From Parcubacteria group bacterium (GTDB lineage: Bacteria > Patescibacteriota > Minisyncoccia > Moranbacterales > UBA9337): a stretch of 64,000 nt of DNA. Below the pieces are notes generated by a model. That model made no database searches and was not told the origin of the DNA. It was given only the letters and a program-made list of their open reading frames with translations. Below are positions 2,445 through 63,733 of this stretch, piece by piece. Location of the stretch: NCBI GenBank assembly GCA_041662245.1, contig JBAZSW010000005.1, positions 57,837 through 121,836 of the forward strand, read 5' to 3'. The translations under genes and the position numbers were made by a program. The first letter of the stretch is position 1. Each line of letters opens with the position of its first letter.

Positions 2445-3560
2445 ATGAAACCAAAAACAAATAAAAAAATATTCTTTCTTTTAGCATTGTTTTTTTTAAC
2501 TTTTGCTTTTCAAATTCAAGCAGCCGATACAAATACCGGATTAGTTCCTTGTGGTCTTGATTCCACTTATGCAAATAGATGCACCCTATGTCATTTAATC
2601 GTAGGAATTAGAGATATTATTGATTGGGGAAAAACTATTTTAATTGTTGTGGCCTTAGTGGCTATTGTTGCAGGAGCCATAATGTACATAGTTAGTGCTG
2701 GAAATAATACTTTAATGGAAGCAGCTAAAAATGTTATCAAACAAGCTCTTTGGGGCGTCGTTATAGTTTTAGGAGCATGGGTAATTGTTAACACTGCCCT
2801 ATGGTTGATAACTTCCAAGCTAAATGATTCTGGATCTAGCAGTCAGAAATTTTTAGATATTTCCAGTTGGAATGATTTTCAATGTAAGGGGGGAGGAGGT
2901 GGCACTTCCACATCAACATCAACTTCAACTTCTACCTCCACATCTACTTCCACATCAACTTCAACTTCTACCTCCACATCTCCCGGAACGGGTACTATCC
3001 CTGATGCTTGCAAAAAATATGAAAGTGACTTCAGCAGTGCTGCAGGTGGAGATAATAATTTAAAATGTTTAATGATTGGAATAGCTAATAGTGAAAGTAA
3101 TTGCAACCCAAATATAGGCAACAGTTCAGCAGGCGCTTGTGGGATGATGCAAATTGTTCCTACCAGTGGAGTGGATTGTAATGAGTTAAGGAGTAATCCG
3201 CAGTCAAGTATTACAAGGGCTACTAGTATGATAAATAGTAATAAAAGTACGCTTGGTAGCAGGTATAGTTCAACTTTTGATATAGGAAATAGTAGTGGAC
3301 TAAGTGGTAAAAGTGTAACTTACGGAAATCATACTTATGATACAGGCAATGATGATCTAATTGCTTCTTATAATGGAGGAACAGGATCAGGAATTAATAG
3401 TAATGGAACTAAGCAACCCTTTGCTAAATCAACGGATTGTCCCACGACCAATCCAGCCACTCCCGCTTGGCAATGCAATATTAATCCGGTGGGTTTTAAT
3501 AAGACTCAGGATTATGTAAAATCAGTGCAAGACACTCAGAAAAAATGTTTGGGCAATTAG
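2445..3560 (+). CDS. T4SS-pilin-like N-terminal module fused to a (Thr-Ser)n linker and a lytic transglycosylase (SLT/VirB1-like) domain
   Basis: N-terminal 147 aa are identical to the upstream gene (nt 2443-2886 = 1363-1806). C-terminal IANSESNC...GACGMMQIVPTSG...SYNGG matches the SLT family-1 catalytic motifs (ES, GLMQ, YN). Confidence 0.7.
   Translation: MKPKTNKKIFFLLALFFLTFAFQIQAADTNTGLVPCGLDSTYANRCTLCHLIVGIRDIIDWGKTILIVVALVAIVAGAIMYIVSAGNNTLMEAAKNVIKQALWGVVIVLGAWVIVNTALWLITSKLNDSGSSSQKFLDISSWNDFQCKGGGGGTSTSTSTSTSTSTSTSTSTSTSTSTSPGTGTIPDACKKYESDFSSAAGGDNNLKCLMIGIANSESNCNPNIGNSSAGACGMMQIVPTSGVDCNELRSNPQSSITRATSMINSNKSTLGSRYSSTFDIGNSSGLSGKSVTYGNHTYDTGNDDLIASYNGGTGSGINSNGTKQPFAKSTDCPTTNPATPAWQCNINPVGFNKTQDYVKSVQDTQKKCLGN
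2896..2988 (+). repeat. In-frame tandem (TS)n coding repeat (two ~40-bp units) forming a flexible linker
   Basis: acttccacatcaac...ttctacctccacatct occurs twice and translates to (TS)~23. Confidence 0.8.
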
Positions 3561-12998: not shown

Positions 12999-13154
12999 AA
13001 ATTTTCAATGTCCAATTTTCAATGTTCAATCAATATTTAATGAATTAATGCTTTAATGTTAAAATAGAAATATAAATTTTTTTCAATCTCCTCCTCCCCT
13101 TTGAAGGGGAGAGTAGAGAGGGGTTAGTGCTTTCAAACTTTCTATATAAAAAAA

Positions 13155-19900: not shown

Positions 19901-20004
19901 CTAAGATTAGTTCACGGTTATTGGTTGACGGTTCACAGTATTTATTTTTAAATTATTAATAATTTTACTAGTTACTGATTACAAGTTACTAGTTACTAAT
20001 ATAT

Positions 20005-20672: not shown

Positions 20673-21095
20673 ATGGCAAAGGCAAAAACAGTTATAAAAC
20701 TTCAAATACCCGCCGGAAAAGCAAATCCGGCTCCACCAGTTGGACCAGCTTTGGGACAACATGGTGTTAATATTCAAGATTTTTGTTCTCAATTTAATAA
20801 TAGGAGCCAAGAGAGAATGGGAGATATTGTTCCTGTGGAAATTACAGTGAATGAAGACAGAAGCTTTTCTTTTATTATGAAAACTTCTCCTGCTTCAGAT
20901 TTATTAAAGAAAGCCGCCGGTGTTGAGAAAGGTGCTGGTAATCCATTGAAAGACAAAGTTGGAAAAGTTACCAAAGCTCAGGTAAAAGAAATTGCAGAGA
21001 AAAAGATGGAAGATTTGAACGCTGATGATGTGGAGGCAGCAATGAAAATTATTGAAGGAACTGCTCGTTCAATGGGAATTAAAGTTGAGGGTTAG
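20673..21095 (+). CDS. rplK: 50S ribosomal protein L11
   Basis: [34 protein letters not shown]. Confidence 0.95.
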
Positions 21096-21247
21096 GAATA
21101 TAAGAACTTAGAAATGTAGGAATTTAGGAAATTTAGATATAATAATTTAATTAATTTGTGGGAGAAAATTAGTTGAGAATAAAAAGTTAAAAGTTAAATA
21201 TTAACTTTAAGAATTTTACTAACTATTTTCGTTTACCACGAAAAAAT

Positions 21248-21919: not shown

Positions 21920-22068
21920 TTTTCAAAAAAACTTCATATAAAAAAACTGCTCTGAAATATGGGTGGTTTTTTGTTTGGCGCGAAGGGCTTGCTGTGTATA
22001 TTTTTAATTTTTTAATAGTTTATTGCTAAAATGTTTTATGTTTTATGTTTTTATGCTATTATTCAAAT

Positions 22069-22500
22069 ATGGAAAATAAAATAGTAATCTACACAGACGG
22101 TGGTTCGCGGGGCAATCCTGGGCCGGCCGGAATTGGTGTTTGGATTGAAACATTAAATAAGAAATATGGAGAGTGTATCGGAATAAAAACCAACAATGAT
22201 GCTGAATACGAAGCATTGATTTTTGGTTTGAAAAAAGTTAAAGCACTTTTGGGAAAAACTAAGGCCAAACAATTTAAAATTGAGTGTTATGCTGATAGTG
22301 AGCTAATGGTCAAACAACTCAATCATATTTATAAGCTTAAAGAAGAAAGAATTCAAAAATATTTTATTGAAATTTGGAATTTAATATTAGATTTTAAAAC
22401 AGTTAAATTTAATCATGTTCCACGTGAAAAAAATACTATAGCGGATGGGATGGTTAATGAGGCGTTGGATGGGAAATGCAAGCAAGAAAGCCTGCTGTAA
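22069..22500 (+). CDS. rnhA: Ribonuclease HI
   Basis: IYTDGGSRGNPGPAGIGV...YADSELMVKQLN RNase H catalytic residues. The start at 22069 is preferred over 22045. Confidence 0.8.
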   Translation: MENKIVIYTDGGSRGNPGPAGIGVWIETLNKKYGECIGIKTNNDAEYEALIFGLKKVKALLGKTKAKQFKIECYADSELMVKQLNHIYKLKEERIQKYFIEIWNLILDFKTVKFNHVPREKNTIADGMVNEALDGKCKQESLL

Positions 22501-22537
22501 GTGTGAATTATGAATCAAGAATTAAGAATTATGAATT

Positions 22538-22933
22538 ATGGAAAACAAAAAAGAAAAAATAAAATCATTTACTGATTTAAACGCTTGGAGAGAAGGACAT
22601 AAGTTGGTTTTAGAAATTTATAATATAACGAAACTATTTCCTGAAGATGAGAGATTTGGTTTAATTTCTCAGATGAGAAGATGTGCAGTTTCTATAACAT
22701 CAAATATCGCAGAGGGTTTTAGCCGTAAGGGTATGAAGGAAAAAATTCAGTTTTATCATATATCTCTTGGATCTATAACAGAATTGCAAAATCAGCTATT
22801 GATCTGTAGAGATTTAAAAATTTTAGATAATGATAAATTTAAAAAAATAGCCCAGCAGACGACGCTGGTACAAAAAATTACCAACGGATTAATCAAGTCA
22901 ACAAAATATATGAATTCTGAATTTAATTCATAA
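22538..22933 (+). CDS. Four-helix-bundle protein (23S rRNA intervening-sequence protein family), copy 1
   Basis: AW..GHKLVLEIY..T..FP..ERFGLISQMRRCAVSITSNIAEGF.R. Flanked by the inverted repeat tgaattaagaatta. Confidence 0.85.
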   Translation: MENKKEKIKSFTDLNAWREGHKLVLEIYNITKLFPEDERFGLISQMRRCAVSITSNIAEGFSRKGMKEKIQFYHISLGSITELQNQLLICRDLKILDNDKFKKIAQQTTLVQKITNGLIKSTKYMNSEFNS

Positions 22934-22956
22934 TTCTTAATTCACGTAAAATAAAT

Positions 22957-23970
22957 ATGAAAAGAAGAAAAAAAATAATAATTTGGGTAGTAATATTGGC
23001 AGTTTTAGGTGCAGGAGCCTATTATTATTTCAAGCCCAAAAAAACTGGTCTAGAATATACTACCGAAAAAGTAGCTAAGGCAGATATTAAACAGACAGTT
23101 TCTGTAACGGGAGAAGTGAGCGATATCAGCAGATTAGACATTACTCCTGAGATAAGTGGGACGGTAGATGAATTGTTAGTAAAAGTTGGAGACAAGGTTA
23201 TTAAAGGACAAAAAATTGCCAAGATAAATGATTCCGTTGTGCGGTCACAGTTAAATGAGTCAATGATTGCCCTTCAAACTCAGCAAGAGCAATTAACTTT
23301 AAAAAGAAGAAAATGGGAATCTCTGGCTCCCGAGGAAAGGGAGTTGGCAAAACTAGCTGTGGAGAGTGCTCGGGCGGCCACGTGGACGATTCAAAAGCAA
23401 CTTAAAAAAAATGTAGTCTATGCCCCCGTAGATGGAATAGTCACAAAAAAATATTTAGAAGTAGGAGAGATGGCTTCAGTGGCAACTCCTATAGTAACTA
23501 TTTCTGGAGAAAAAGGTTTTGAAATTAAAGCTAATATTCCAGAGTCAGATATTAATAAAATTGAAATAGGACAAAAAGGGAAATCAACTTTTGATGCTTT
23601 TCTTTCAGATGAAATATTTGAATTTGAAGTTACTGAAATTGAGCCAGCTGCAACCATTATTCAAGACGTGGTTTATTATGAGGTGACTTTTAAAATTTTA
23701 ACTCAAGATAATCGTATTAAATCAGGAATGAGTACAGATATTGATATTTTAACAGATGAAAAGAAAGATGTTTTGGCAGTTTCTAATCAAGCTATTAAAA
23801 ATGATGAAGGTAATCGATATGTGGAAGTTTTGGAATTAAAAGACAAGGTCAAAACTACTAGAAAAATAAATGTAAAAGCAGGATTAAGAGGAGATGATGG
23901 AATGACGGAAATTATTTCGGGATTAAATGGTGGTGAGGAAGTAATAACTTTTACAAAGGAAGCTAAATAA
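22957..23970 (+). CDS. Efflux transporter periplasmic adaptor subunit (HlyD/MacA-like)
   Basis: N-terminal TM, coiled-coil, and beta-barrel/lipoyl-like motifs of the membrane-fusion-protein family. Confidence 0.75.
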   Translation: MKRRKKIIIWVVILAVLGAGAYYYFKPKKTGLEYTTEKVAKADIKQTVSVTGEVSDISRLDITPEISGTVDELLVKVGDKVIKGQKIAKINDSVVRSQLNESMIALQTQQEQLTLKRRKWESLAPEERELAKLAVESARAATWTIQKQLKKNVVYAPVDGIVTKKYLEVGEMASVATPIVTISGEKGFEIKANIPESDINKIEIGQKGKSTFDAFLSDEIFEFEVTEIEPAATIIQDVVYYEVTFKILTQDNRIKSGMSTDIDILTDEKKDVLAVSNQAIKNDEGNRYVEVLELKDKVKTTRKINVKAGLRGDDGMTEIISGLNGGEEVITFTKEAK

Positions 23971-24018
23971 GAACTTAGGAATGCAAGAATTTAGGAATCT
24001 AGGAATATAAAAAATTAG

Positions 24019-24408
24019 GTGTTTAGAAATATGGGAAATGAAAAGATAAAGGATTTTACAGACTTAATCGTTTGGAAAGAGGGACATAAATTGGTATTAA
24101 TGATTTATGATGCTACAAATAACTTTCCTAAAAATGAAAGATTTGGTTTAGTTTCTCAGATGAGGAGATGCGCAGTTTCCATTACATCTAATATTGCAGA
24201 AGGATTTGGAAGAAAAGGATACAAAGAGAAACTGCAATTTTATTATGTGTCATCAGGATCGCTTAGCGAATTGAAAAATCAGACTTTAATTGCTAAAGAT
24301 GTAAAATATTTATCCGAAAAATCTTTTATTGATATTATGCAACGAGCTGATTCTACGCACAAACTTTTAAATTTATTTATATCGAAAACAAAAACATTTG
24401 TATCTTGA
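24019..24408 (+). CDS. Four-helix-bundle protein (23S rRNA IVS protein family), copy 2
   Basis: LIVWKEGHKLVLMIY...RFGLVSQMRRCAVSITSNIAEGFGRKG. Confidence 0.85.
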   Translation: MFRNMGNEKIKDFTDLIVWKEGHKLVLMIYDATNNFPKNERFGLVSQMRRCAVSITSNIAEGFGRKGYKEKLQFYYVSSGSLSELKNQTLIAKDVKYLSEKSFIDIMQRADSTHKLLNLFISKTKTFVS

Positions 24409-24475
24409 GTTTTTACATTTACAAATTCCAAAATTTTTAGTCTCTTAAATTCATATATTCTTAACTTCTCAAAAA

Positions 24476-25204
24476 ATGTCAACTCCATTAATTCAAATAA
24501 AAAATCTAACTAAAACTTACATTAACGGTGAAGTGGAAACTTTGGCGTTGGGCAAAAATTCTTTTAATATAGAAAAGGGAGAATTTGTTTCCATTATGGG
24601 CCCGAGCGGTAGTGGTAAATCAACCTTGATGCAAATGCTAGGACTTTTGGATAAGCCCAGTGGAGGGGAATATTTTTTAGAGGGTAAAAATACAAGAGAT
24701 TTTTCAGATGATATTTTGGCCGAAACTAGAAATAGTAAAATTGGTTTTGTTTTTCAAACCTTTAATCTCTTGCCTCGCACTAGCGTATATGAAAATGTCG
24801 AATTGCCCCTTCTGTATAATAGAGATATTAGTAGCAGTATTAATGAAAAGAAAATTACCGAAGCTTTAAAATCAGTGGGGATGGAACATCGAACTAGCTA
24901 TCTTTCTAATCAGCTTTCTGGAGGAGAAAAACAAAGAGTAGCTATCGCACGAGCGTTGGTAACTGATCCAGAGATAATTTTTGCTGATGAGCCAACAGGA
25001 AATTTAGATTCAAAAAGTGGAACCCAAATAATGGAAATTTTACAAAAACTGAATAATGAAGGAAAAACGATTATCTTGGTAACACATGAAACTTTTACTG
25101 CTCAACATGCTAAAAGAATTTTAAATGTAAAAGATGGTTTGATAATTTCTGACGAAATAGTAAAAGATAGAAAAATTGCCCAAGATGGAGAACTGCTAAA
25201 ATAA
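24476..25204 (+). CDS. ABC transporter ATP-binding protein (MacB/LolD-type)
   Basis: Walker [10 protein letters not shown], signature [15 protein letters not shown], and Walker [13 protein letters not shown]. Confidence 0.9.
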
Positions 25205-25230
25205 TTTCGAATTTCGAATTTCGAATTTCG
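25203..25230. repeat. (aatttcg)4 heptanucleotide tandem repeat in an intergenic spacer
   Basis: aatttcgaatttcgaatttcgaatttcg. Confidence 0.8.
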
Positions 25231-25318
25231 ATTGAATTTTAAATGAAATAATGTTTAAAAAATTAAAACATTAGAATTTGATTCAAAATTAAAAATTCTA
25301 AATTTAAAATTATTTGAA

Positions 25319-26566
25319 ATGCACATATTTATTCCCATAAAAATTTCTCTTAAAAATTTAATGGCGGCTAAATTCCGTTCTTTTTTAACTATTTTGGGAA
25401 TTATTATTGGGGTAGCTTCGGTGATTATTATTTTTGCTGTAGGGCAAAGTGCTCAAGAATTAATCCTTGATCAAATTAGGGGAGTGGGTTCAAATTTGGT
25501 GGGTGTTTTGCCAGGTGCCTCAGATGAAAAAGGTCCTCCTGCCTCGGCCATGGGCATAGTGATTACAACCTTGAAGTATAATGATTTTTTGGAACTTAAA
25601 AAACCAAAAAATGTAACTGGAGTAATGGCGGGGGCGGGTTATGTAATGGGAACGGCTACCATAGAAAATGATGGGACAGAACTGGGTATGTCTTTTACGG
25701 GCGTTACATCGCAGTATCCAGAAGTTGAAAGTACCGGAATGAGTGATGGAAGATTTTTTATTGAAGAAGAGGAAGTTAATTTATCCAAAGTTGTTGTTTT
25801 GGGAAAAACGGCAGCCAAGGATATTTTTGGAGATTCTGATCCAATAGGAAAAAAAATAAAAATTAATGATTATAAATTTACTGTAGTGGGGGTTCTCAAA
25901 GAAAGATCTTCAGCCGCTTTTGGTATGGCTAGTCAGGATGAAGCGGTTTTTGTCCCACTCTTTACAGCCCAAAAACTGCTTTTGGGTATCAATCATTTGG
26001 CTTACGTCAGGTTAAAAATAGATTCAATAGAGAATATTCCTATTGCCAAAGAAGATATTGCTATTACTCTCAGAAATCAGCATGATATTGAGGATCCAGA
26101 TGATGATGATTTTTCAGTTCGAGATCAGGCATCAGCTATAGATATAATAAGTACAATAACTAATGCCATGCGTTATTTTCTTTTGTCAGTAGGAACGATT
26201 TCTTTAATTGTGGGCGGAGTAGGGGTGATGAATGTGATGTTGATAGCTGTTAATCAAAGGATAAAAGAGGTGGGACTCCGAAAAGCAGTGGGGGCAAAAA
26301 ATAGTGATGTAATGCTTCAATTTTTAATTGAATCCGCCACGATATCTTTTATGGGAGGATTAATCGGAATAATCATTGGGATATCTTTTTCTTTTGGTGC
26401 CTCATTGATGATAAACTCATTGGGATATGATTGGAAATTTATTATTTCTCCCAGTTCGATTGTGATTGCTGCAACTGTTTCTATTATGATTGGAATAATT
26501 TTCGGTTTGTATCCAGCTTTAAAGGCAGCCAAAATTAGTCCGATGGAAGCTTTGCGTTATGAATAG
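25319..26566 (+). CDS. ABC transporter permease, FtsX/MacB-like (MacB_PCD plus FtsX domains)
   Basis: N-terminal TM, large periplasmic domain and a C-terminal 3-TM FtsX domain. Partner of the ATPase. Confidence 0.8.
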   Translation: MHIFIPIKISLKNLMAAKFRSFLTILGIIIGVASVIIIFAVGQSAQELILDQIRGVGSNLVGVLPGASDEKGPPASAMGIVITTLKYNDFLELKKPKNVTGVMAGAGYVMGTATIENDGTELGMSFTGVTSQYPEVESTGMSDGRFFIEEEEVNLSKVVVLGKTAAKDIFGDSDPIGKKIKINDYKFTVVGVLKERSSAAFGMASQDEAVFVPLFTAQKLLLGINHLAYVRLKIDSIENIPIAKEDIAITLRNQHDIEDPDDDDFSVRDQASAIDIISTITNAMRYFLLSVGTISLIVGGVGVMNVMLIAVNQRIKEVGLRKAVGAKNSDVMLQFLIESATISFMGGLIGIIIGISFSFGASLMINSLGYDWKFIISPSSIVIAATVSIMIGIIFGLYPALKAAKISPMEALRYE

Positions 26567-26622
26567 TTTTAATTAAAAATTAAAAGTGCAAAATTAAAAG
26601 TTGCAATCCAAAATTAAAATTT

Positions 26623-27000
26623 ATGGAAAAGGAAGAATTTAAAAAAATGTTAAAATTAAGAGCCTTCAATCTGGCTCGAAATATAATGAAATTAACAGAT
26701 AGATTTCCTCAAAAAAGATCTGCTTGGGTAATAGCTGATCAATTACTTCGTTCCGCCACTAGTATTGGAGCCAATATAATAGAGGCACAAGCGGCCAGTT
26801 CAAAAAGAGATTTTATAAATTTTTTAAACCATGCACTAAAGAGTGGCAATGAAACCAAATTTTGGTTGGCATTAGCTAAAGATTTGGATGATAAATTAGT
26901 TCCAGAAATAGAAAAACAACTCAAAGAAACTGATGAGCTAGTAAGAATACTAGGTTCTAGCATAACAACTTTAAAAGGTAAGAAAACTTTGAATTGTTAA
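26623..27000 (+). CDS. Four-helix-bundle protein (23S rRNA IVS protein family), copy 3 (divergent)
   Basis: AFNLARNIMKLTDRFP...QLLRSATSIGANIIEAQA. Flanked by an inverted gtgcaaaattaaaagttgcaa / tgcaaagttaaaaatta. Confidence 0.75.
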   Translation: MEKEEFKKMLKLRAFNLARNIMKLTDRFPQKRSAWVIADQLLRSATSIGANIIEAQAASSKRDFINFLNHALKSGNETKFWLALAKDLDDKLVPEIEKQLKETDELVRILGSSITTLKGKKTLNC

Positions 27001-27043
27001 CTGTAATTTTTAACTTTGCATTTTTAAATTTTAATTTAATAAC

Positions 27044-28321
27044 GTGAATAAATTTTTTATTTCAATTAAACTCGCTTTAAGAAATCTTTATGGCAATAAG
27101 GTGCGAACCGCTTTATCGCTTTTGGGTATTGTTATTGGAGTGACTTCAGTGATTTTGATTTTAGCTTTAGGTAATGGTTTGAGAAATTTTGTTACTGATC
27201 AGGTAGAGAGCTTTGGAACAGATATTGTGCAGATAGAGATCAAAGTTCCCAAAACTTCTCATGTTTCTTCAGAAAATATGGGGGCGATGGCTGGGGGAAC
27301 TCAAATTACTACTCTTAAAATAGAAGAGTTGGAAGAAGTGGCTAAGTTGGCTAATCTAGGTGATTGGTATGCAGGAATATTGGGTCAGCAAATTGTTACG
27401 CGAGAGGATGAAAATGAGCAAACTTATATTTTTGGTGTGACTAGTGGGATGATGGAGGCAGACAGTGGGGCAGAGCTGGAAAAGGGAACATTTTTTACCG
27501 ATGAGGATGATAGAGATTTAAAACAGGTAGCTATCTTGGGAAGCAAAACTAAAGATTTATTTTTCCCCAATGAGGAAGCTGTGGGCCAAAGTATTAAAAT
27601 TGGAAAAAATAAATATAAGGTTATTGGTGTGGTGAAAGAGCGGAGCTCGAGTGGTGGTTTTGATTTTAATAAAATTGTTTACATTCCAGTCAAGACTCTC
27701 CAAAAAAAGATAATGGGAATTAAACATGTGCAATTTGCTATTTTTAAAATAAAAAATATGGAAATTGTTGATCAAACTATGGAAGAAATGCGTTCTATTA
27801 TGCGAGATAAACATGATATAGAATATGAGAATGAGAAGGATAAAAAAGAAGGCATTGATGATGATTTTGCTATAATGTCGATAGCTGAAGCTAAGGAAAT
27901 TTTAGATAAAGTTTTTAATATTATTGATTATTTACTTTTAGCTCTAGTTTCGATTTCTCTGATAGTGGGAGGCGTAGGAATAATGAATGTGATGTATGTG
28001 GCAGTAGCTGAACGAACTCAAGAGATAGGCCTAAGAAAAGCGGTGGGGGCTAGAAATAGTGATGTGCTTTGGCAATTTATTTTTGAAGCAATATTTTTAA
28101 CTTTGTTAGGTGGCGCTGTGGGGATAATTTTGGGAATTTTATTTGCTGAATTAGCCACCTATTTAATTGCTCAATATAACTATAATATTATTTTTGGGGT
28201 TACTGGCCGGTCAGTATTTATCGCAGTGGGATTTTCTATGATCACGGGAATAGTTTTTGGGTTTTACCCTGCCAAAAGAGCTTCTCAGTTAACTCCCGCT
28301 GAGGCATTACGCAAAGAATAA
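27044..28321 (+). CDS. ABC transporter permease, FtsX/MacB-like (second permease)
   Basis: Paralogous architecture to 25319-26566. Confidence 0.8.
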   Translation: MNKFFISIKLALRNLYGNKVRTALSLLGIVIGVTSVILILALGNGLRNFVTDQVESFGTDIVQIEIKVPKTSHVSSENMGAMAGGTQITTLKIEELEEVAKLANLGDWYAGILGQQIVTREDENEQTYIFGVTSGMMEADSGAELEKGTFFTDEDDRDLKQVAILGSKTKDLFFPNEEAVGQSIKIGKNKYKVIGVVKERSSSGGFDFNKIVYIPVKTLQKKIMGIKHVQFAIFKIKNMEIVDQTMEEMRSIMRDKHDIEYENEKDKKEGIDDDFAIMSIAEAKEILDKVFNIIDYLLLALVSISLIVGGVGIMNVMYVAVAERTQEIGLRKAVGARNSDVLWQFIFEAIFLTLLGGAVGIILGILFAELATYLIAQYNYNIIFGVTGRSVFIAVGFSMITGIVFGFYPAKRASQLTPAEALRKE

Positions 28322-30785: not shown

Positions 30786-30834
30786 AGGGCAGTTTATAAA
30801 GTTTTTAAAGTTCCTAAGGTTTATAAAGTGGAGC

Positions 30835-30985
30835 TGTCATTTTGACCGGATAAATTTATGCCTATCATGTTGAATAACATGGTACTCATAAATTTAGGAG
30901 TGAAGAAATCTACATATTTTATAGCTGAGATTCCTCCATTTCCAAATATTTGAGTACAAAGATTTATCCAGTCGGAATGACACAC
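30835..30985 (-). mobile_element. MITE-like repeat element, copy C (complete unit with ~22-bp terminal inverted repeats, inverse orientation)
   Basis: The left arm ctgtcattttgaccggataaatttatg matches the reverse complement of the right arm ttatccagtcggaatgacacac. The arms also match the ends of copies A and B. Confidence 0.6.
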
Positions 30986-32420: not shown

Positions 32421-32505
32421 TTATAATTAAATTGTAACAGTTATAAAGTTCATAAAGTTTTTAAAGTTGTAAGGTTTGTAAAGTTGAGAAAACTATATTA
32501 TAGAC

Positions 32506-33252: not shown

Positions 33253-33326
33253 GAGGTGTTGCTGGGGTGAATTACGAATTAAGTATTATGAAATAAGATT
33301 TAAGATTTATGATTTAAGAAAAAAAT

Positions 33327-39988: not shown

Positions 39989-40223
39989 CATATGGAGTAC
40001 CATATGAATTTCCAATTTCCAATTCTCAATTTCCAATCAATGGTCAATGTTTTAATTTTAAAAAAAGAACTTGATTTCTTAATATTTTTTTAACTTCTTT
40101 TTGAGCAGGGAGTTTTTTTTGTTGAGATATCGATAAGTATAAATTAAAGGTAACGTTAAAAATTGAAGAAAATAAAAAAAGCGGATTCTTGTCGTAGGTT
40201 CACGATGAATCCGTTTTTGCAAT

Positions 40224-40994: not shown

Positions 40995-41150
40995 ATGGCA
41001 ACAAAGAAAAAAGCTGTTAAAAAAGTAGCTAAGAAAAAAGTAGCTAAGAAAACAGTTAAAAAAGCTGTAAAAAAAGTAGCTAAGAAAACAGTTAAAAAAG
41101 CTGTAAAAAAAGTAGCTAAGAAAACAGTTAAAAAAGCAAAAAGGAAATAA
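40995..41150 (+). CDS. Histone H1-like Lys/Ala-rich repetitive basic protein (51 aa, AVKKVAKKTVKK repeats); absent from the ORF track
   Basis: Translation is MATKKKAVKKVAKKKVAKKTVKKAVKKVAKKTVKKAVKKVAKKTVKKAKRK*. The underlying 36-nt DNA repeat occurs 3 times. A terminator lies immediately downstream. The annotated antisense ORF 40982-41173 is its shadow. Confidence 0.55.
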   Translation: MATKKKAVKKVAKKKVAKKTVKKAVKKVAKKTVKKAVKKVAKKTVKKAKRK

Positions 41151-49665: not shown

Positions 49666-50661
49666 TTGATAAAATCAAAAATAGTTTATAAATTTATAGC
49701 AGATAATAATATGCAAGAAATTAATGAAAAAAAACTAAATATTTCCGTGGTGGTTCCTATATTTAACGAAGAGGAAAATGTTGCTAAATTACATAGCCGG
49801 ATTTTAGAAGAGTGTCAAAAGCTGGAAAGAAGTTTTGAAATAATTTTTATTAATGATGGTTCTTCGGATAAGACCTTAGAGGAATGCAAAAAGCTAAGTC
49901 CTCTGAAATTAATAAATTTTAGAAAAAATTATGGTCAGACAGCAGCTTTTGATGCTGGTTTTCAAGCGTCTCAAGGAGAGATAGTAATAACCATGGACGG
50001 TGATTTGCAAAATGATCCTGCCGATATAAATAAATTGCTAGATAAAATAGCAGAGGGGTTTGACGTAGTAAGCGGTTGGAGATTTCAAAGGAAAGATTCT
50101 TTGAGTAAAAAAATATTTTCTCGGGGAGCTAATTTGTTACGAAAATTTTTTATTCAAGATAACATTCATGATAGTGGTTGCAGTCTGAAAGCTTATAAAC
50201 GAGAGTGCTTTAATGATTTAGAACTTTTTGGAGAAATGCATCGCTTTATTCCTGCTCTCTTGGAAATGGATGGATTTAAGGTAGCGGAAGTGAAAGTTTC
50301 GCATCATCCTCGGATAGCGGGGGTAACAAAATATAATTGGAGGAGAGCTTTTAAGGGAATGGTAGATATGATGTCCATTTGGTTTTGGAGAAAATATGCC
50401 AACCGGCCACTTCATCTTTTTGGAGCTAGCGGAGTGATTTTATCAGTTGCTGGAATAGGAATTCTAATTTGGATGTTTATAGAAAAAGTTTTCTTTGCGC
50501 AATCTATTGGAGAAAGAATTTGGCCGATGATAGGCGTGATGTTTACTCTAGTGGGCGTGCAACTCTTTATCTCGGGACTTTTAGCGGATATTATTATTAA
50601 AAATTATTTCAAAGCTAAAAATCATCGCGGATATTATATTAAAGAAGTTATTAATAATTAG
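49666..50661 (+). CDS. Family-2 glycosyltransferase (polyprenyl-phosphate sugar transferase, DPM1/ArnC-like) with 2 C-terminal TM helices
   Basis: VVVPIFNEE..., DGSSD and ITMDGDLQ(N)DP DXD motifs. Confidence 0.8.
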   Translation: MIKSKIVYKFIADNNMQEINEKKLNISVVVPIFNEEENVAKLHSRILEECQKLERSFEIIFINDGSSDKTLEECKKLSPLKLINFRKNYGQTAAFDAGFQASQGEIVITMDGDLQNDPADINKLLDKIAEGFDVVSGWRFQRKDSLSKKIFSRGANLLRKFFIQDNIHDSGCSLKAYKRECFNDLELFGEMHRFIPALLEMDGFKVAEVKVSHHPRIAGVTKYNWRRAFKGMVDMMSIWFWRKYANRPLHLFGASGVILSVAGIGILIWMFIEKVFFAQSIGERIWPMIGVMFTLVGVQLFISGLLADIIIKNYFKAKNHRGYYIKEVINN

Positions 50662-50880
50662 GAATTTAAGAATCTAGGAATTTGGTAATCTGAAAATTTG
50701 AGAATAAGCCAAAATAATATAAAAAGCTCTCTCTATGTCTGAGGGAGTTTTTTTACAAAATTTTCCTTGACAAAAATTGATTTTAGTAGTATTTTAACTG
50801 GAAACAAAAAAAGTACTTTATTAGGGGGAGAGGTGCGGTTTTGCCTTAAATTATAAGAGAAAAAAACGAGGAGAGAGATT

Positions 50881-59058: not shown

Positions 59059-59092
59059 GGGTAATTAAAAATTCAAAGTGCAAAGTTAAAAG

Positions 59093-59578
59093 TTGCAGTT
59101 CAAAATTCAAAATTATTTGTTAAATCATATGAACAAAAAGGAACAAAAACCAGGCAAAGATTATATCGGGGTAGGCGGAGGAGTTTTGATTTTTAATGAC
59201 AAGAAAGAGATCCTACTTTTAAAAAGAACAAATAAGACTAGAAATGAAGCGGGATATTGGGAGAAGCCGGGGGGAATGGTTGGTTACAATGAGAAAGCGA
59301 TTATTGCTATGAAGAGAGAAATAAAGGAAGAAGTTAATTTAAATATAAATATTTGGGGTTATCTCCCTCACACTGATCACATAATGAAAAGAGAAGGACA
59401 GCACTGGGTAGCCTTCAATTATTTGGCTAGTGTAAAATCAGGTGAGTTTAAAAATATGGAGCCGCACAAACACGATGAAGTGAAATGGTTTACTCTAGAT
59501 AAATTACCTAAAAAAATTAGTCAAACAACTAGAGAATCAATTAAGAATTATAGGGAGAAAAAATATATTAAAATTTAA
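59093..59578 (+). CDS. NUDIX hydrolase
   Basis: Nudix box GGMVGYNEKAIIAMKREIKEEVNL. Confidence 0.8.
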   Translation: MQFKIQNYLLNHMNKKEQKPGKDYIGVGGGVLIFNDKKEILLLKRTNKTRNEAGYWEKPGGMVGYNEKAIIAMKREIKEEVNLNINIWGYLPHTDHIMKREGQHWVAFNYLASVKSGEFKNMEPHKHDEVKWFTLDKLPKKISQTTRESIKNYREKKYIKI

Positions 59579-59668
59579 AGATGATGCAAATGTGCAAATG
59601 AATGCAAATACTGCGAATAGAGGTTAATTCCTAAATTCTTATATTCCTAAATTCTTAAAAACAAATAC

Positions 59669-59994: not shown

Positions 59995-60047
59995 CAAGTC
60001 TAGTCATCGCATTAGCTAAAACCGAGCTCGCGAGGTTTTAGATGACG
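59995..60047. repeat. REP-like palindromic repeat, copy 1 (caagtctagtcatcgcattaKctaaaaccgagctcgcgaggttttagatRacgt)
   Basis: Second copy at 63119-63171 with 2 mismatches. An 8-bp stem ctaaaacc/ggttttag encloses a self-complementary GAGCTCGCGAG. Confidence 0.8.
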
Positions 60048-60195
60048 TATCCTCGATGTTTGAAGTCCTGTCGCTCGAGAGCGACGGGATTTGGGTGGGG
60101 CGAAAATATATTTTTTTTGTTTCTTTATTCTTGACTTTTTAAAGCGTTGTGATAATGTTGTGAAAAATGTAAAATTACTAAAAAGGAGGATAATA

Positions 60196-60402
60196 ATGTA
60201 CAAACGGGTACTGCTTTGGCACATATACGGTAACAAAGGCTCTTTCAAAAATGTTGTTACTTACTTTGAAGGAGGAATCAACGAACTGCAATATTACATT
60301 GAAAGAAATGAAACGTTATTATTTGAACAAGTTGAATTAGCACTAAAAGATGGGGAAAAAGTAGATAGGGCAGTGCTTCATCAAATAGAAAACCCAGAAT
60401 GA
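60196..60402 (+). CDS. Small hypothetical protein (68 aa)
   Basis: The strong RBS aaaaggagga precedes the ATG, and a terminator follows. Confidence 0.5.
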   Translation: MYKRVLLWHIYGNKGSFKNVVTYFEGGINELQYYIERNETLLFEQVELALKDGEKVDRAVLHQIENPE

Positions 60403-63118: not shown

Positions 63119-63171
63119 CCAAGTCTAGTCATCGCATTATCTAAAACCGAGCTCGCGAGGTTTTAGATAAC
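63119..63171. repeat. REP-like palindromic repeat, copy 2
   Basis: See 59995-60047. Confidence 0.8.
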
Positions 63172-63340: not shown

Positions 63341-63733
63341 TTATCTCTCCCATTCTTTAATATGCGGTGAAAAATCAAGCTGATAATCCGGAATGCCTAA
63401 TGACACGCCGTATTTTGTTACATCATCATATTGCTCTGATTTGGAGCGATCAACTTTGAATACTTTATTGCGGAAGATAATGTAATGAAAATCATCATTT
63501 TTAAAATCAGCATACCAATTCTGTTTAGAATCTAATGCCTTGCTAATTCCTTCTGCAATATTGTCAGCTTGATTTTGAAAAATTTCAACGGTGTGCAATG
63601 TCCATTGTTTTATCCAAGGTGTTTGATGTTTTTCGGTTACTTGCTCAACATCCGTCTTGAGAATATTTACTTTTCCCAAAACATCTCTATTCTCAAGACT
63701 TTCCTCAATAATTACACCGTTGAAATTTTTCAT
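63341..63733 (-). CDS. Hypothetical protein (130 aa)
   Basis: ORF only. Confidence 0.4.
   Translation of the reverse strand: MKNFNGVIIEESLENRDVLGKVNILKTDVEQVTEKHQTPWIKQWTLHTVEIFQNQADNIAEGISKALDSKQNWYADFKNDDFHYIIFRNKVFKVDRSKSEQYDDVTKYGVSLGIPDYQLDFSPHIKEWER

Follow-up and report, generated by a model that had tools for sequence, protein, structure and literature searches.

Intervening sequences (IVSs) of the Leptospira, Coxiella, Xanthomonas and Brucella type are located in helix 25 or 45 of 23S rRNA and enclose an open reading frame (ORF) of the S23p family within stem-forming inverted repeats. Their ORF follows the orientation of the host transcript, their distribution is sporadic and horizontally patchy, and their excision by RNase III has been shown. 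In the Coxiella 23S IVS three to four copies of the heptamer GACAGAT run up to the ATG of the S23p ORF, a member of PF05635, and a complementary array follows its stop codon; RNase III cuts at the first repeat, and the ORF is reported to be decaying and probably untranslated (PMC4990558). PF05635 ORFs are also found in 16S and 23S insertions of the Candidate Phyla Radiation (CPR; PMC11270868). Heptamer repeats are separately known as the STRR (short tandemly repeated repetitive) sequences of heterocystous cyanobacteria and as the GGGAATC and TAACTGA repeats of Xanthomonas and Beggiatoaceae (PMC2670836, PMC4692102, PMC4679880). They consist mostly of about four tandem units, lie between co-directional genes and frequently form convergent, hairpin-capable pairs, for which a role in transcript stability or translational coupling has been proposed (PMC2670836). 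Here we analyze a stretch of 64,000 nucleotides (hereafter the window; G+C content 33.9%) of contig JBAZSW010000005.1 from a Parcubacteria group bacterium of the Moraniibacteriota (CPR), in which genes for four-helix-bundle (4HB) proteins of the PF05635/TIGR02436 family occupy three of the four junctions of a MacAB-like efflux operon. The evidence supports reading these genes and their flanking repeats as probable insertions of an IVS-like cassette rather than as components of the pump.

The three 4HB genes, all on the + strand and promoter-less, are bounded at their start and stop codons by inverted arrays, or arms, of about four to five tandem units of 7 nt, sometimes 8 nt (Table 1). An initial annotation, made from the letters of the window and their ORFs, had described short imperfect inverted repeats around each gene; the repeats are real and above chance, but "short" and "imperfect" do not do them justice, since the arms are built of such units. 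The inverted repeat of copy 1 is perfect over 20 nt (22519-22538/22924-22943) and can be extended to 22503-22945, that of copy 2 covers 37 nt at 73% (23970-24006/24433-24469), and that of copy 3 covers 55 nt at 78% (26568-26622/26985-27039). By duplex energy between upstream and downstream flanks the three genes rank 2, 4 and 5 among 64 genes of the window, with z values against shuffled downstream flanks of -4.0, -2.6 and -6.0 for copies 1, 2 and 3, respectively. The flank stem is closed in both the minimum-free-energy and the centroid RNA fold of each whole cassette, and the flanks are therefore predicted to pair stably. A fourth element, absent from that annotation, fills the ATPase/permease junction in the form of a gene-less hairpin. 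At all four junctions the outer arm ends are 0-3 nt away from the stop codon upstream and about 4-12 nt from the next start codon, and the 4HB start and stop codons fall within the arms. As the outer ends nearly abut the neighboring cistrons, the element amounts to the whole spacer.

An isolated copy of the cassette 3 arm motif had also been reported between murA and a NUDIX gene; it is an exact 23-mer match (59075-59097) where 0 are expected by chance. Further solo tandem arrays of 7-9-nt units lacking a 4HB gene are found in the intergenic regions 21092-21136, 33269-33320, 50651-50691, 59626-59659 and 13000-13030, and in the spacers at 19965-19998, 30791-30829, 32428-32486 and 40007-40037. 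Among them are TTAGGAAT x5.5, which lies between rplK and rplA, and, upstream of 33327, GAATTAA x7.4. Some of these arrays share their unit family with the cassette arms, and the solo arrays may be relics or landing sites.

The host operon has the gene order RNase H/adaptor/ABC ATPase/permease/permease. It encodes the HlyD-family adaptor, ABC ATPase and MacB_PCD/FtsX permease of a MacAB-like efflux system, with the ATPase on its own polypeptide and two permease genes, so that the Pfam assignments bear out the insertion sites first proposed, i.e. before the adaptor gene, between adaptor and ATPase, and between the two permeases. The 4HB genes had been placed at 22538-22933, 24019-24408 and 26623-27000, and + strand ORFs matching PF05635 (122, 125 and 82 bits for 4HB1, 4HB2 and 4HB3; cut-off 33.8) and TIGR02436 (118, 113 and 100 bits; cut-off 24) are present there. 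By homology with copy 1 the start of 4HB2 is most likely the ATG at 24031, the GTG at 24019 being merely the mechanical start of the ORF. 4HB1 and 4HB3 match solved pentameric four-helix bundles in sequence, namely 2gsc (XCC0516) and 2rld. 4HB1 and 4HB2 share 62% amino acid identity and 4HB3 is about 30% identical to either; the motif RFGL..NIAEGF, originally ascribed to all three, occurs in copies 1 and 2 but not in this distant paralogue. A tblastn search recovered no further 4HB copy in the window.

Scanning genomes with a permease as query yielded 13 orthologous Moraniibacteriota operons (L001-L013), in which the host genes are full length and keep their order while the contents of the junctions vary. 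Some junctions are empty, with a spacer of 3 nt; others contain a hairpin without a gene, an intact 4HB gene, a 4HB gene of a different lineage, a pseudogene, a deletion remnant, or a gene encoding a GxxExxY or GIY-YIG nuclease. In L010, whose RNase H, adaptor, ATPase and both permeases are 87-92% identical to those of the window, cassette 1 is present (96% amino acid identity), the adaptor and ATPase genes are separated by TAA-AAT-ATG alone, and gene-less hairpins lie elsewhere. Comparison of this empty junction with the filled one of the window shows that the cassette replaces the whole TAA-to-ATG spacer. L008, L011 and L013 have a 4HB gene at no junction, and three of their pump-operon junctions measure 20-100 nt. 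In L012 a deletion has left the 5' arm with 36 nt from the beginning of the 4HB1 ORF, and L003 carries a 4HB2 pseudogene with two in-frame stop codons. The permease/permease junction of L004, L006 and L007 contains PF05635 genes that are 33-38% identical to 4HB3 and have unrelated arms, and the RNase H/adaptor junction holds a GxxExxY/PDDEXK_3 gene in L006 and a GIY-YIG gene in L009. In L001 and L010 arms like those of the gene-less hairpin of the window enclose non-coding inserts of 150-220 nt.

Operons with and without inserts were thus found, and the co-linear conservation expected of ordinary operon members is absent at these junctions; because of this, and because the flanks pair stably, we dismiss ordinary operon membership. 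The comparison shows gain, loss, replacement, pseudogenisation and internal deletion of cassettes at the level of DNA among close relatives. The mobility that the initial annotation had entertained as an option is supported by these filled, empty and replaced junctions and with the recurrence of the same arm-plus-ORF unit in unrelated operons and CPR phyla (see below). Three adaptor/ATPase spacers of the relatives are long, namely L001:3338-4254 (917 nt), L004:6692-7158 (467 nt) and L006:6686-7119 (434 nt). They contain no intact ORF of a known family; a search of six-frame translations of long ORF-less spacers with the family hidden Markov model (HMM) recovered no 4HB remnant in these three and detected the L003 pseudogene alone.

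The ratio of non-synonymous to synonymous substitutions (dN/dS) ranges from 0.02 to 0.19 for intact 4HB orthologues and from 0.03 to 0.11 for the host genes, and shows the 4HB protein to be maintained by purifying selection. As intact copies are constrained as strongly as host genes, the protein does something. The designation of the elements as IVS-like selfish cassettes accordingly holds for the IVS-like insertion, but "selfish" needs qualification.

To what extent these features are peculiar to one operon can be judged from 58 independent metagenomic 4HB genes with both flanks and 203 control genes from the same contigs, a sample composed mainly of the 4HB1/2-like subfamily because the narrower alignment (A2) was used, the diverse one (A1) being too divergent for the scan. 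The median inverted-repeat score is 33 for the 4HB genes and 15 for the controls (Mann-Whitney p = 9e-18), and 81% of the 4HB genes exceed the 95th percentile of the controls. Autocorrelation within the arms reaches 0.65-0.67 at lag 7 and is about 0.25 at the remaining lags; of 43 cases, 31 have their best lag at 7 and 11 at 8, and 36 have a purine-rich 5' arm. The G+C content of these loci spans 32%-66%. Of 48 upstream neighbors 46 are co-directional, as are 44 of the 47 downstream ones; the median gaps are 34 nt, and the 92 neighbors match 129 Pfam families, none seen more than 3 times. The cassette has the direction of the unrelated genes on either side and leaves next to no free spacer between them.

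The two arms also belong together. As a match to the 5' arm, the own 3' arm scores 36.7 and foreign 3' arms 15.0 (0 of 5000 permutations as high), and within the AT-rich 4HB1 lineage the respective values are 35.7 and 25.4. Protein identity correlates with the sharing of 6-mers between arms (Mantel rho 0.28, a value reached in 0 of 2000 permutations), and this correlation persists for pairs of hosts differing in G+C content. Since own arms match and arm 6-mers follow protein identity, arms and ORF behave as a unit of inheritance, and the data show them to be inherited and relocated together. The repeat unit changes from lineage to lineage, with the match between the two arms maintained.

The same cassette recurs in other operons and phyla. 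Close homologues of 4HB1 (70-75% identity) lie co-directionally and tightly between SecD and SecF, FtsW and MraY, and CorA and CysS, each with heptamer inverted-repeat arms. Proteins of the 4HB3 type are 75-98% identical across Moran-, Buchanan- and Levybacteria, where their genes follow gatA or stand between genes for glycosyltransferases or between those for giant surface proteins; the arms of all 4HB3-type cassettes examined are of the AAAGTTN/NAACTTT family. An F-type atp operon of Levybacteria (L178/L179) contains three PF05635 genes (1261-1668, 2501-2869 and 3122-3493), one of which is of the 4HB3 type; this triple insertion among ATP synthase cistrons parallels the triple insertion of the window. 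Two metagenomic 4HB cassettes lie between co-directional tRNA genes, i.e. in the spacer of a stable-RNA operon (L134:1231-1850 and L152:187-906), and plasmids of Nostocales have 4HB genes with STRR-like heptamers on both sides, e.g. (GGGTGTA)n/(TACACCC)n in Calothrix. Six loci of Acidobacteria (60-63% G+C), fetched with the permease query, carry 4HB genes, of which those on the + strand, five in number, have strong inverted arrays of the (TAGACAG)n type on both sides. 4HB genes are found between tandem MacB-like permease genes at L035:7526-7921, L069:7546-7935, L046:9326-9709, L062:9272-9667 and L037:9280-9543; the Acidobacteria arrays, which are of the (TAGACAG)n, (TAGAGNN)n or (AGTGAAT)n type, resemble the Coxiella IVS heptamer GACAGAT. 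The 4HB family as a whole is very large and multi-copy, with thousands of homologues per query.

How close these cassettes stand to the rRNA IVSs can now be stated. Both have an S23p-family ORF within stem-forming inverted repeats, the orientation of the host transcript and a sporadic, patchy distribution. As in Coxiella, tandem heptamers extend to the ATG, with the TGAATTA x5.3 array ending in that of copy 1 and arrays of 8-mers and of 7/14-mers preceding copies 2 and 3, and a complementary array follows the stop codon. The window elements differ in lying between protein-coding cistrons, as no rRNA or other Rfam family was found at gathering thresholds in the window (nor was any in L001 or L010), in the presence of three copies and a gene-less hairpin in one operon, and in the strong purifying selection on an ORF that is said to be decaying in Coxiella. 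Location apart, they share every other feature of the rRNA IVSs that sequence allows to be compared. RNase III excision, shown for rRNA, might by analogy extend to the window cassettes. With the STRR and Xanthomonas repeats they share tandem 7-nt units that lie in co-directional spacers and are paired with an inverted array; here, in contrast, the units are AT-rich and constitute, in a CPR genome, the arms of a gene cassette, whereas the papers on those repeats describe the repeats alone.

Based on these observations we propose, with a probability of roughly 70%, that the elements are copies of a widespread, arm-bounded PF05635 cassette of operon spacers whose arms would form a stem in the transcript. 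The cassette would be transcribed by read-through of the host operon; among the operon junctions there are no intrinsic-terminator-like sites on the + strand, and promoter-like sites occur at chance level. In the transcript the arms would pair to a stem of 20-55 bp that closes off the cassette and juxtaposes, at its base, the upstream stop codon and the downstream start codon. Such a stem could serve as a substrate of RNase III, as it does in rRNA IVSs; alternatively it could keep the flanking cistrons coupled, a terminating ribosome melting its base. Either effect would explain how insertion into operons is tolerated. It is a further speculation that the pentameric 4HB protein binds its own repeat arms, an idea prompted by three circumstances: related Avd proteins bind an RNA stem-loop beside their own gene, arm units track the protein lineage, and there are about four to five copies of the unit per arm.

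Several observations weigh against this proposal. Mismatches between arms are of the G:U type in 54 cases and of the A:C type in 81 on the sense strand (p = 0.025 in the other direction), although selection for pairing in the sense RNA alone should leave an excess of G:U; this speaks against an explanation at the RNA level alone. Within the tight 4HB3 lineage a cassette's own arms score no higher than foreign ones of that lineage (47.6 and 47.3), both arms being simply conserved; with repeats that also slip in alignment, classical compensatory covariation is not demonstrable there, and such conservation as sequence agrees with recognition by a protein or with young age no less than with pairing. 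Of the sampled metagenomic 4HB genes, about 19% have no clear inverted repeat. For the cassettes neither a mobilising enzyme nor a target site nor a target-site duplication came to light, and an RNase III gene is absent from the ten ORFs of suitable size tested in the window, a negative that does not extend to the rest of the genome. Finally, three of five comparisons give the cassette a dS of about half the flank value, a weak signal of a cassette younger than its flanks because dS values above 1 are saturated.

A DNA-level role of the arms, either as terminal inverted repeats or as iteron-like binding arrays for a trans-acting recombinase or the 4HB protein itself, is a serious rival to the proposed transcript stem, and one that we regard as possible rather than probable; the elements would then be transposon-like and the hairpins MITE-like (MITE: miniature inverted-repeat transposable element). 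The missing G:U excess, the conservation of arm sequence within a lineage and its agreement with the protein lineage, the L012 remnant, the gene-less hairpins that share arm families, the solo arms dispersed in other spacers of the window, and the gain, loss and replacement at one and the same junction would all be accommodated. Indeed, inverted-repeat boundaries, presence/absence polymorphism and gene-less derivatives are shared with MITEs, with repetitive extragenic palindromes and bacterial interspersed mosaic elements (REP/BIME), and with free-standing homing-endonuclease genes, the same junction in relatives holding small GIY-YIG or PD-(D/E)XK (GxxExxY) genes. Unlike these, however, the cassettes have PF05635, a non-nuclease, as sole cargo and lineage-specific tandem-repeat arms, and no transposase, including the REP-associated (RAYT) type, was found in or next to them. 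No consistent target-site duplication distinguishes filled from empty junctions (window against L010), and the window copies are old (62% and 30% amino acid identity). Moreover, their orientation almost always follows the host transcript, and in rRNA the identical architecture is experimentally an RNA stem processed by RNase III (PMC4990558). This alternative overlaps with the DNA mobility included in our own proposal, the sole difference being whether the RNA stem matters. An unlikely alternative is that the hairpins benefit the host as STRR-like intercistronic elements, setting mRNA stability, processing or coupling for subunits needed in unequal amounts, with the 4HB ORF as a passenger in the loop. 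The ATPase/permease spacer is filled by a gene-less hairpin of the same build, relatives have gene-less versions at other junctions, 7-bp STRR hairpins between hupS and hupL have been proposed to stabilise the transcript or couple translation (PMC2670836), and the multi-cassette operons encode multi-subunit membrane machines (the MacAB-like system and the atp operon of L178). Yet L010, L008, L011 and L013 manage with spacers of about 3-100 nt and without any element, and as close relatives do without one it is not needed for the operon. The functionally unrelated host contexts, the arm families that differ between relatives at the same junction and move with the lineage of the cargo, and the strong purifying selection on the 4HB ORF likewise speak against this reading.

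We consider it very improbable that the MacAB-like system has the three 4HB proteins as its ordinary components or regulators. All three 4HB genes of the 64 kb lie in this one operon, they are under purifying selection, and 4HB genes stand beside MacB-like permease genes in the six Acidobacteria loci; this last association is biased, because the loci were selected through a permease query. A specific 4HB-MacB association was rejected by the unbiased survey of metagenomic neighbors, among which ABC_tran occurs 3 times and neither FtsX nor MacB_PCD is among the 25 most frequent families. Junction occupancy, moreover, varies among orthologous operons down to none, a nuclease gene can take the same junction, and close homologues reside in SecDF, dcw, atp and glycosyltransferase operons and between tRNA genes. 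Hardly credible is a role as accessory protein of a diversity-generating retroelement (DGR). The accessory protein Avd of these elements, which belongs to a homologous pentameric four-helix-bundle fold family, binds an RNA stem-loop directly beside its own gene, the 3' end of avd pairing with downstream RNA (bioRxiv 10.1101/2023.10.23.563531), and the 4HB proteins weakly match bAvd (PF22296), the NCBIfam entry DivGenRetAVD and the PHROG entry "Avd protein of DGR". Their scores, however, remain well below cut-off (16-32 bits for NF033474, cut-off 80; 27-32 bits for PF22296, cut-off 40), no reverse transcriptase is adjacent, the neighbors being RNase H, adaptor, ATPase and permeases, no pair of template and variable repeats is seen, and tandem inverted arrays take the place of the DGR spacer. 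A known defence system is likewise unsupported, as PADLOC gave no match for the 4HB, GxxExxY or GIY-YIG proteins.

The PF05635 family, ORF-bearing rRNA IVSs and intergenic heptamer repeats are already known. The IVS ORF, the heptamer repeats and the multi-copy 4HB family have so far been described separately and each left without a function; our results suggest that they are parts of one stem-bracketed gene cassette, which colonises spacers in all kinds of polycistronic transcript and whose turnover between relatives is fast. In the literature we found neither a link between heptamer inverted-repeat pairs and PF05635 genes outside rRNA nor a description of IVS-type cassettes in mRNA operons; coverage was incomplete, most subscription journals lying outside it, and a prior description is possible. 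A wider proposal, which we consider doubtful, is that PF05635 cassettes constitute a single self-contained class of element spanning phyla, in which the 4HB pentamer and the arrays mediate insulation and spread without a canonical transposase. The protein-repeat pair would act together with host RNase III or recombination functions in rRNA, tRNA and mRNA operons alike, and recognition of its own heptamer arrays by the pentamer would explain both the lineage-specific repeat units and their number of about four to five per arm. If so, the STRR, Xanthomonas GGGAATC and other heptamer families would largely be cassette arms or their relics. For the annotation of CPR and other genomes the cassette interpretation implies that 4HB genes should not be taken for components of operons, and that arms should be recognised as element boundaries rather than as terminators or random low-complexity sequence.

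Table 1. Cassettes, repeat arms and host genes of the efflux operon, with the related solo array, in coordinates of the window
Feature	Position	Strand	Description
Cassette 1, 5' arm	22503..22540	+	TGAATTA x5.3 tandem heptamers; 4HB start codon in last unit
4HB1	22538..22933	+	Cargo of cassette 1, 131 aa; PF05635 E 1.3e-35, TIGR02436; PDB 2gsc E 1.7e-20
Cassette 1, 3' arm	22923..22945	+	Complement heptamers, includes 4HB stop codon; 12 nt before adaptor start
Cassette 2, 5' arm	23970..24030	+	GAATTTAG x4.5 octamers, from last base of adaptor stop codon
4HB2	24031..24408	+	Cargo of cassette 2, 125 aa from ATG at 24031; PF05635 E 2e-36, TIGR02436
Cassette 2, 3' arm	24417..24473	+	TCTTAAAT x3.9; 3-7 nt before ATPase start
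Gene-less hairpin	25199..25315	+	In ATPase/permease spacer; AATTTCG x4.1 and complement, 58-nt arms at 74%, 1 nt between
Cassette 3, 5' arm	26568..26622	+	AAAGTGCAAAATTAAAAGTTGCA type, 7/14-nt period; 2 nt after permease 1 stop codon
4HB3	26623..27000	+	Cargo of cassette 3, 125 aa, distant paralogue; PF05635 E 3.4e-23; PDB 2rld E 1.4e-15
Cassette 3, 3' arm	26985..27039	+	5 nt before permease 2 start
Solo array	59063..59114	+	5'-arm type, cassette 3 family, between murA and NUDIX gene; no partner arm, no 4HB gene
RNase H	22045..22500	+	Upstream host gene, RVT_3/RNase_H (Pfam); stop codon ends 2 nt before cassette 1
Adaptor	22957..23970	+	Host gene, HlyD-family membrane-fusion protein (Pfam)
ABC ATPase	24476..25204	+	Host gene (Pfam)
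Permease 1	25319..26566	+	Host gene, MacB_PCD/FtsX (Pfam)
Permease 2	27044..28321	+	Host gene, MacB_PCD/FtsX (Pfam)

Other small cargo occupies the same kind of slot. GxxExxY/PDDEXK_3 genes (TIGR04256) are found at L006:5233-5634 and L137:2330-2707, the latter with CGCAGAT(A) repeats and the complementary ones as its flanks, and L009:5679-6008 encodes a GIY-YIG protein of 109 aa. A MITE-like, palindromic, non-coding element with TGTCATT...AATGACA termini lies after argS in the window (30835-30982); related copies occur within the loops of heptamer hairpins in relatives (L001:6570-6680, L001:5025-5200 and L010:7400-7620), and in L009:5560-6050 the GIY-YIG gene is flanked by like termini, TGTCATTGCGAGG...CCTCGCAATGACA and CGTGGCAATC...GATTGCCACG. 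This suggests a second class of cassette with gene-less derivatives, nested in the first.

Nearly all genes of the window are on the + strand, and ARAGORN detected no tRNA gene in its 64 kb. A dispersed repeat of 48 nt with an internal hairpin (CTAAAACC..GGTTTTAG) is present in two intergenic copies differing by one base (59996-60043 and 63121-63168), and accounts for the high flank-duplex scores of two ORFs without a Pfam match, 60091-60402 and 63341-63733. A perfect tandem repeat with a 36-nt unit (x2.9, 100% identity) is located at 41034-41137 in a stretch of 630 nt devoid of ORFs of at least 100 aa; one frame of the repeat would read as rich in Lys, Ala and Val.

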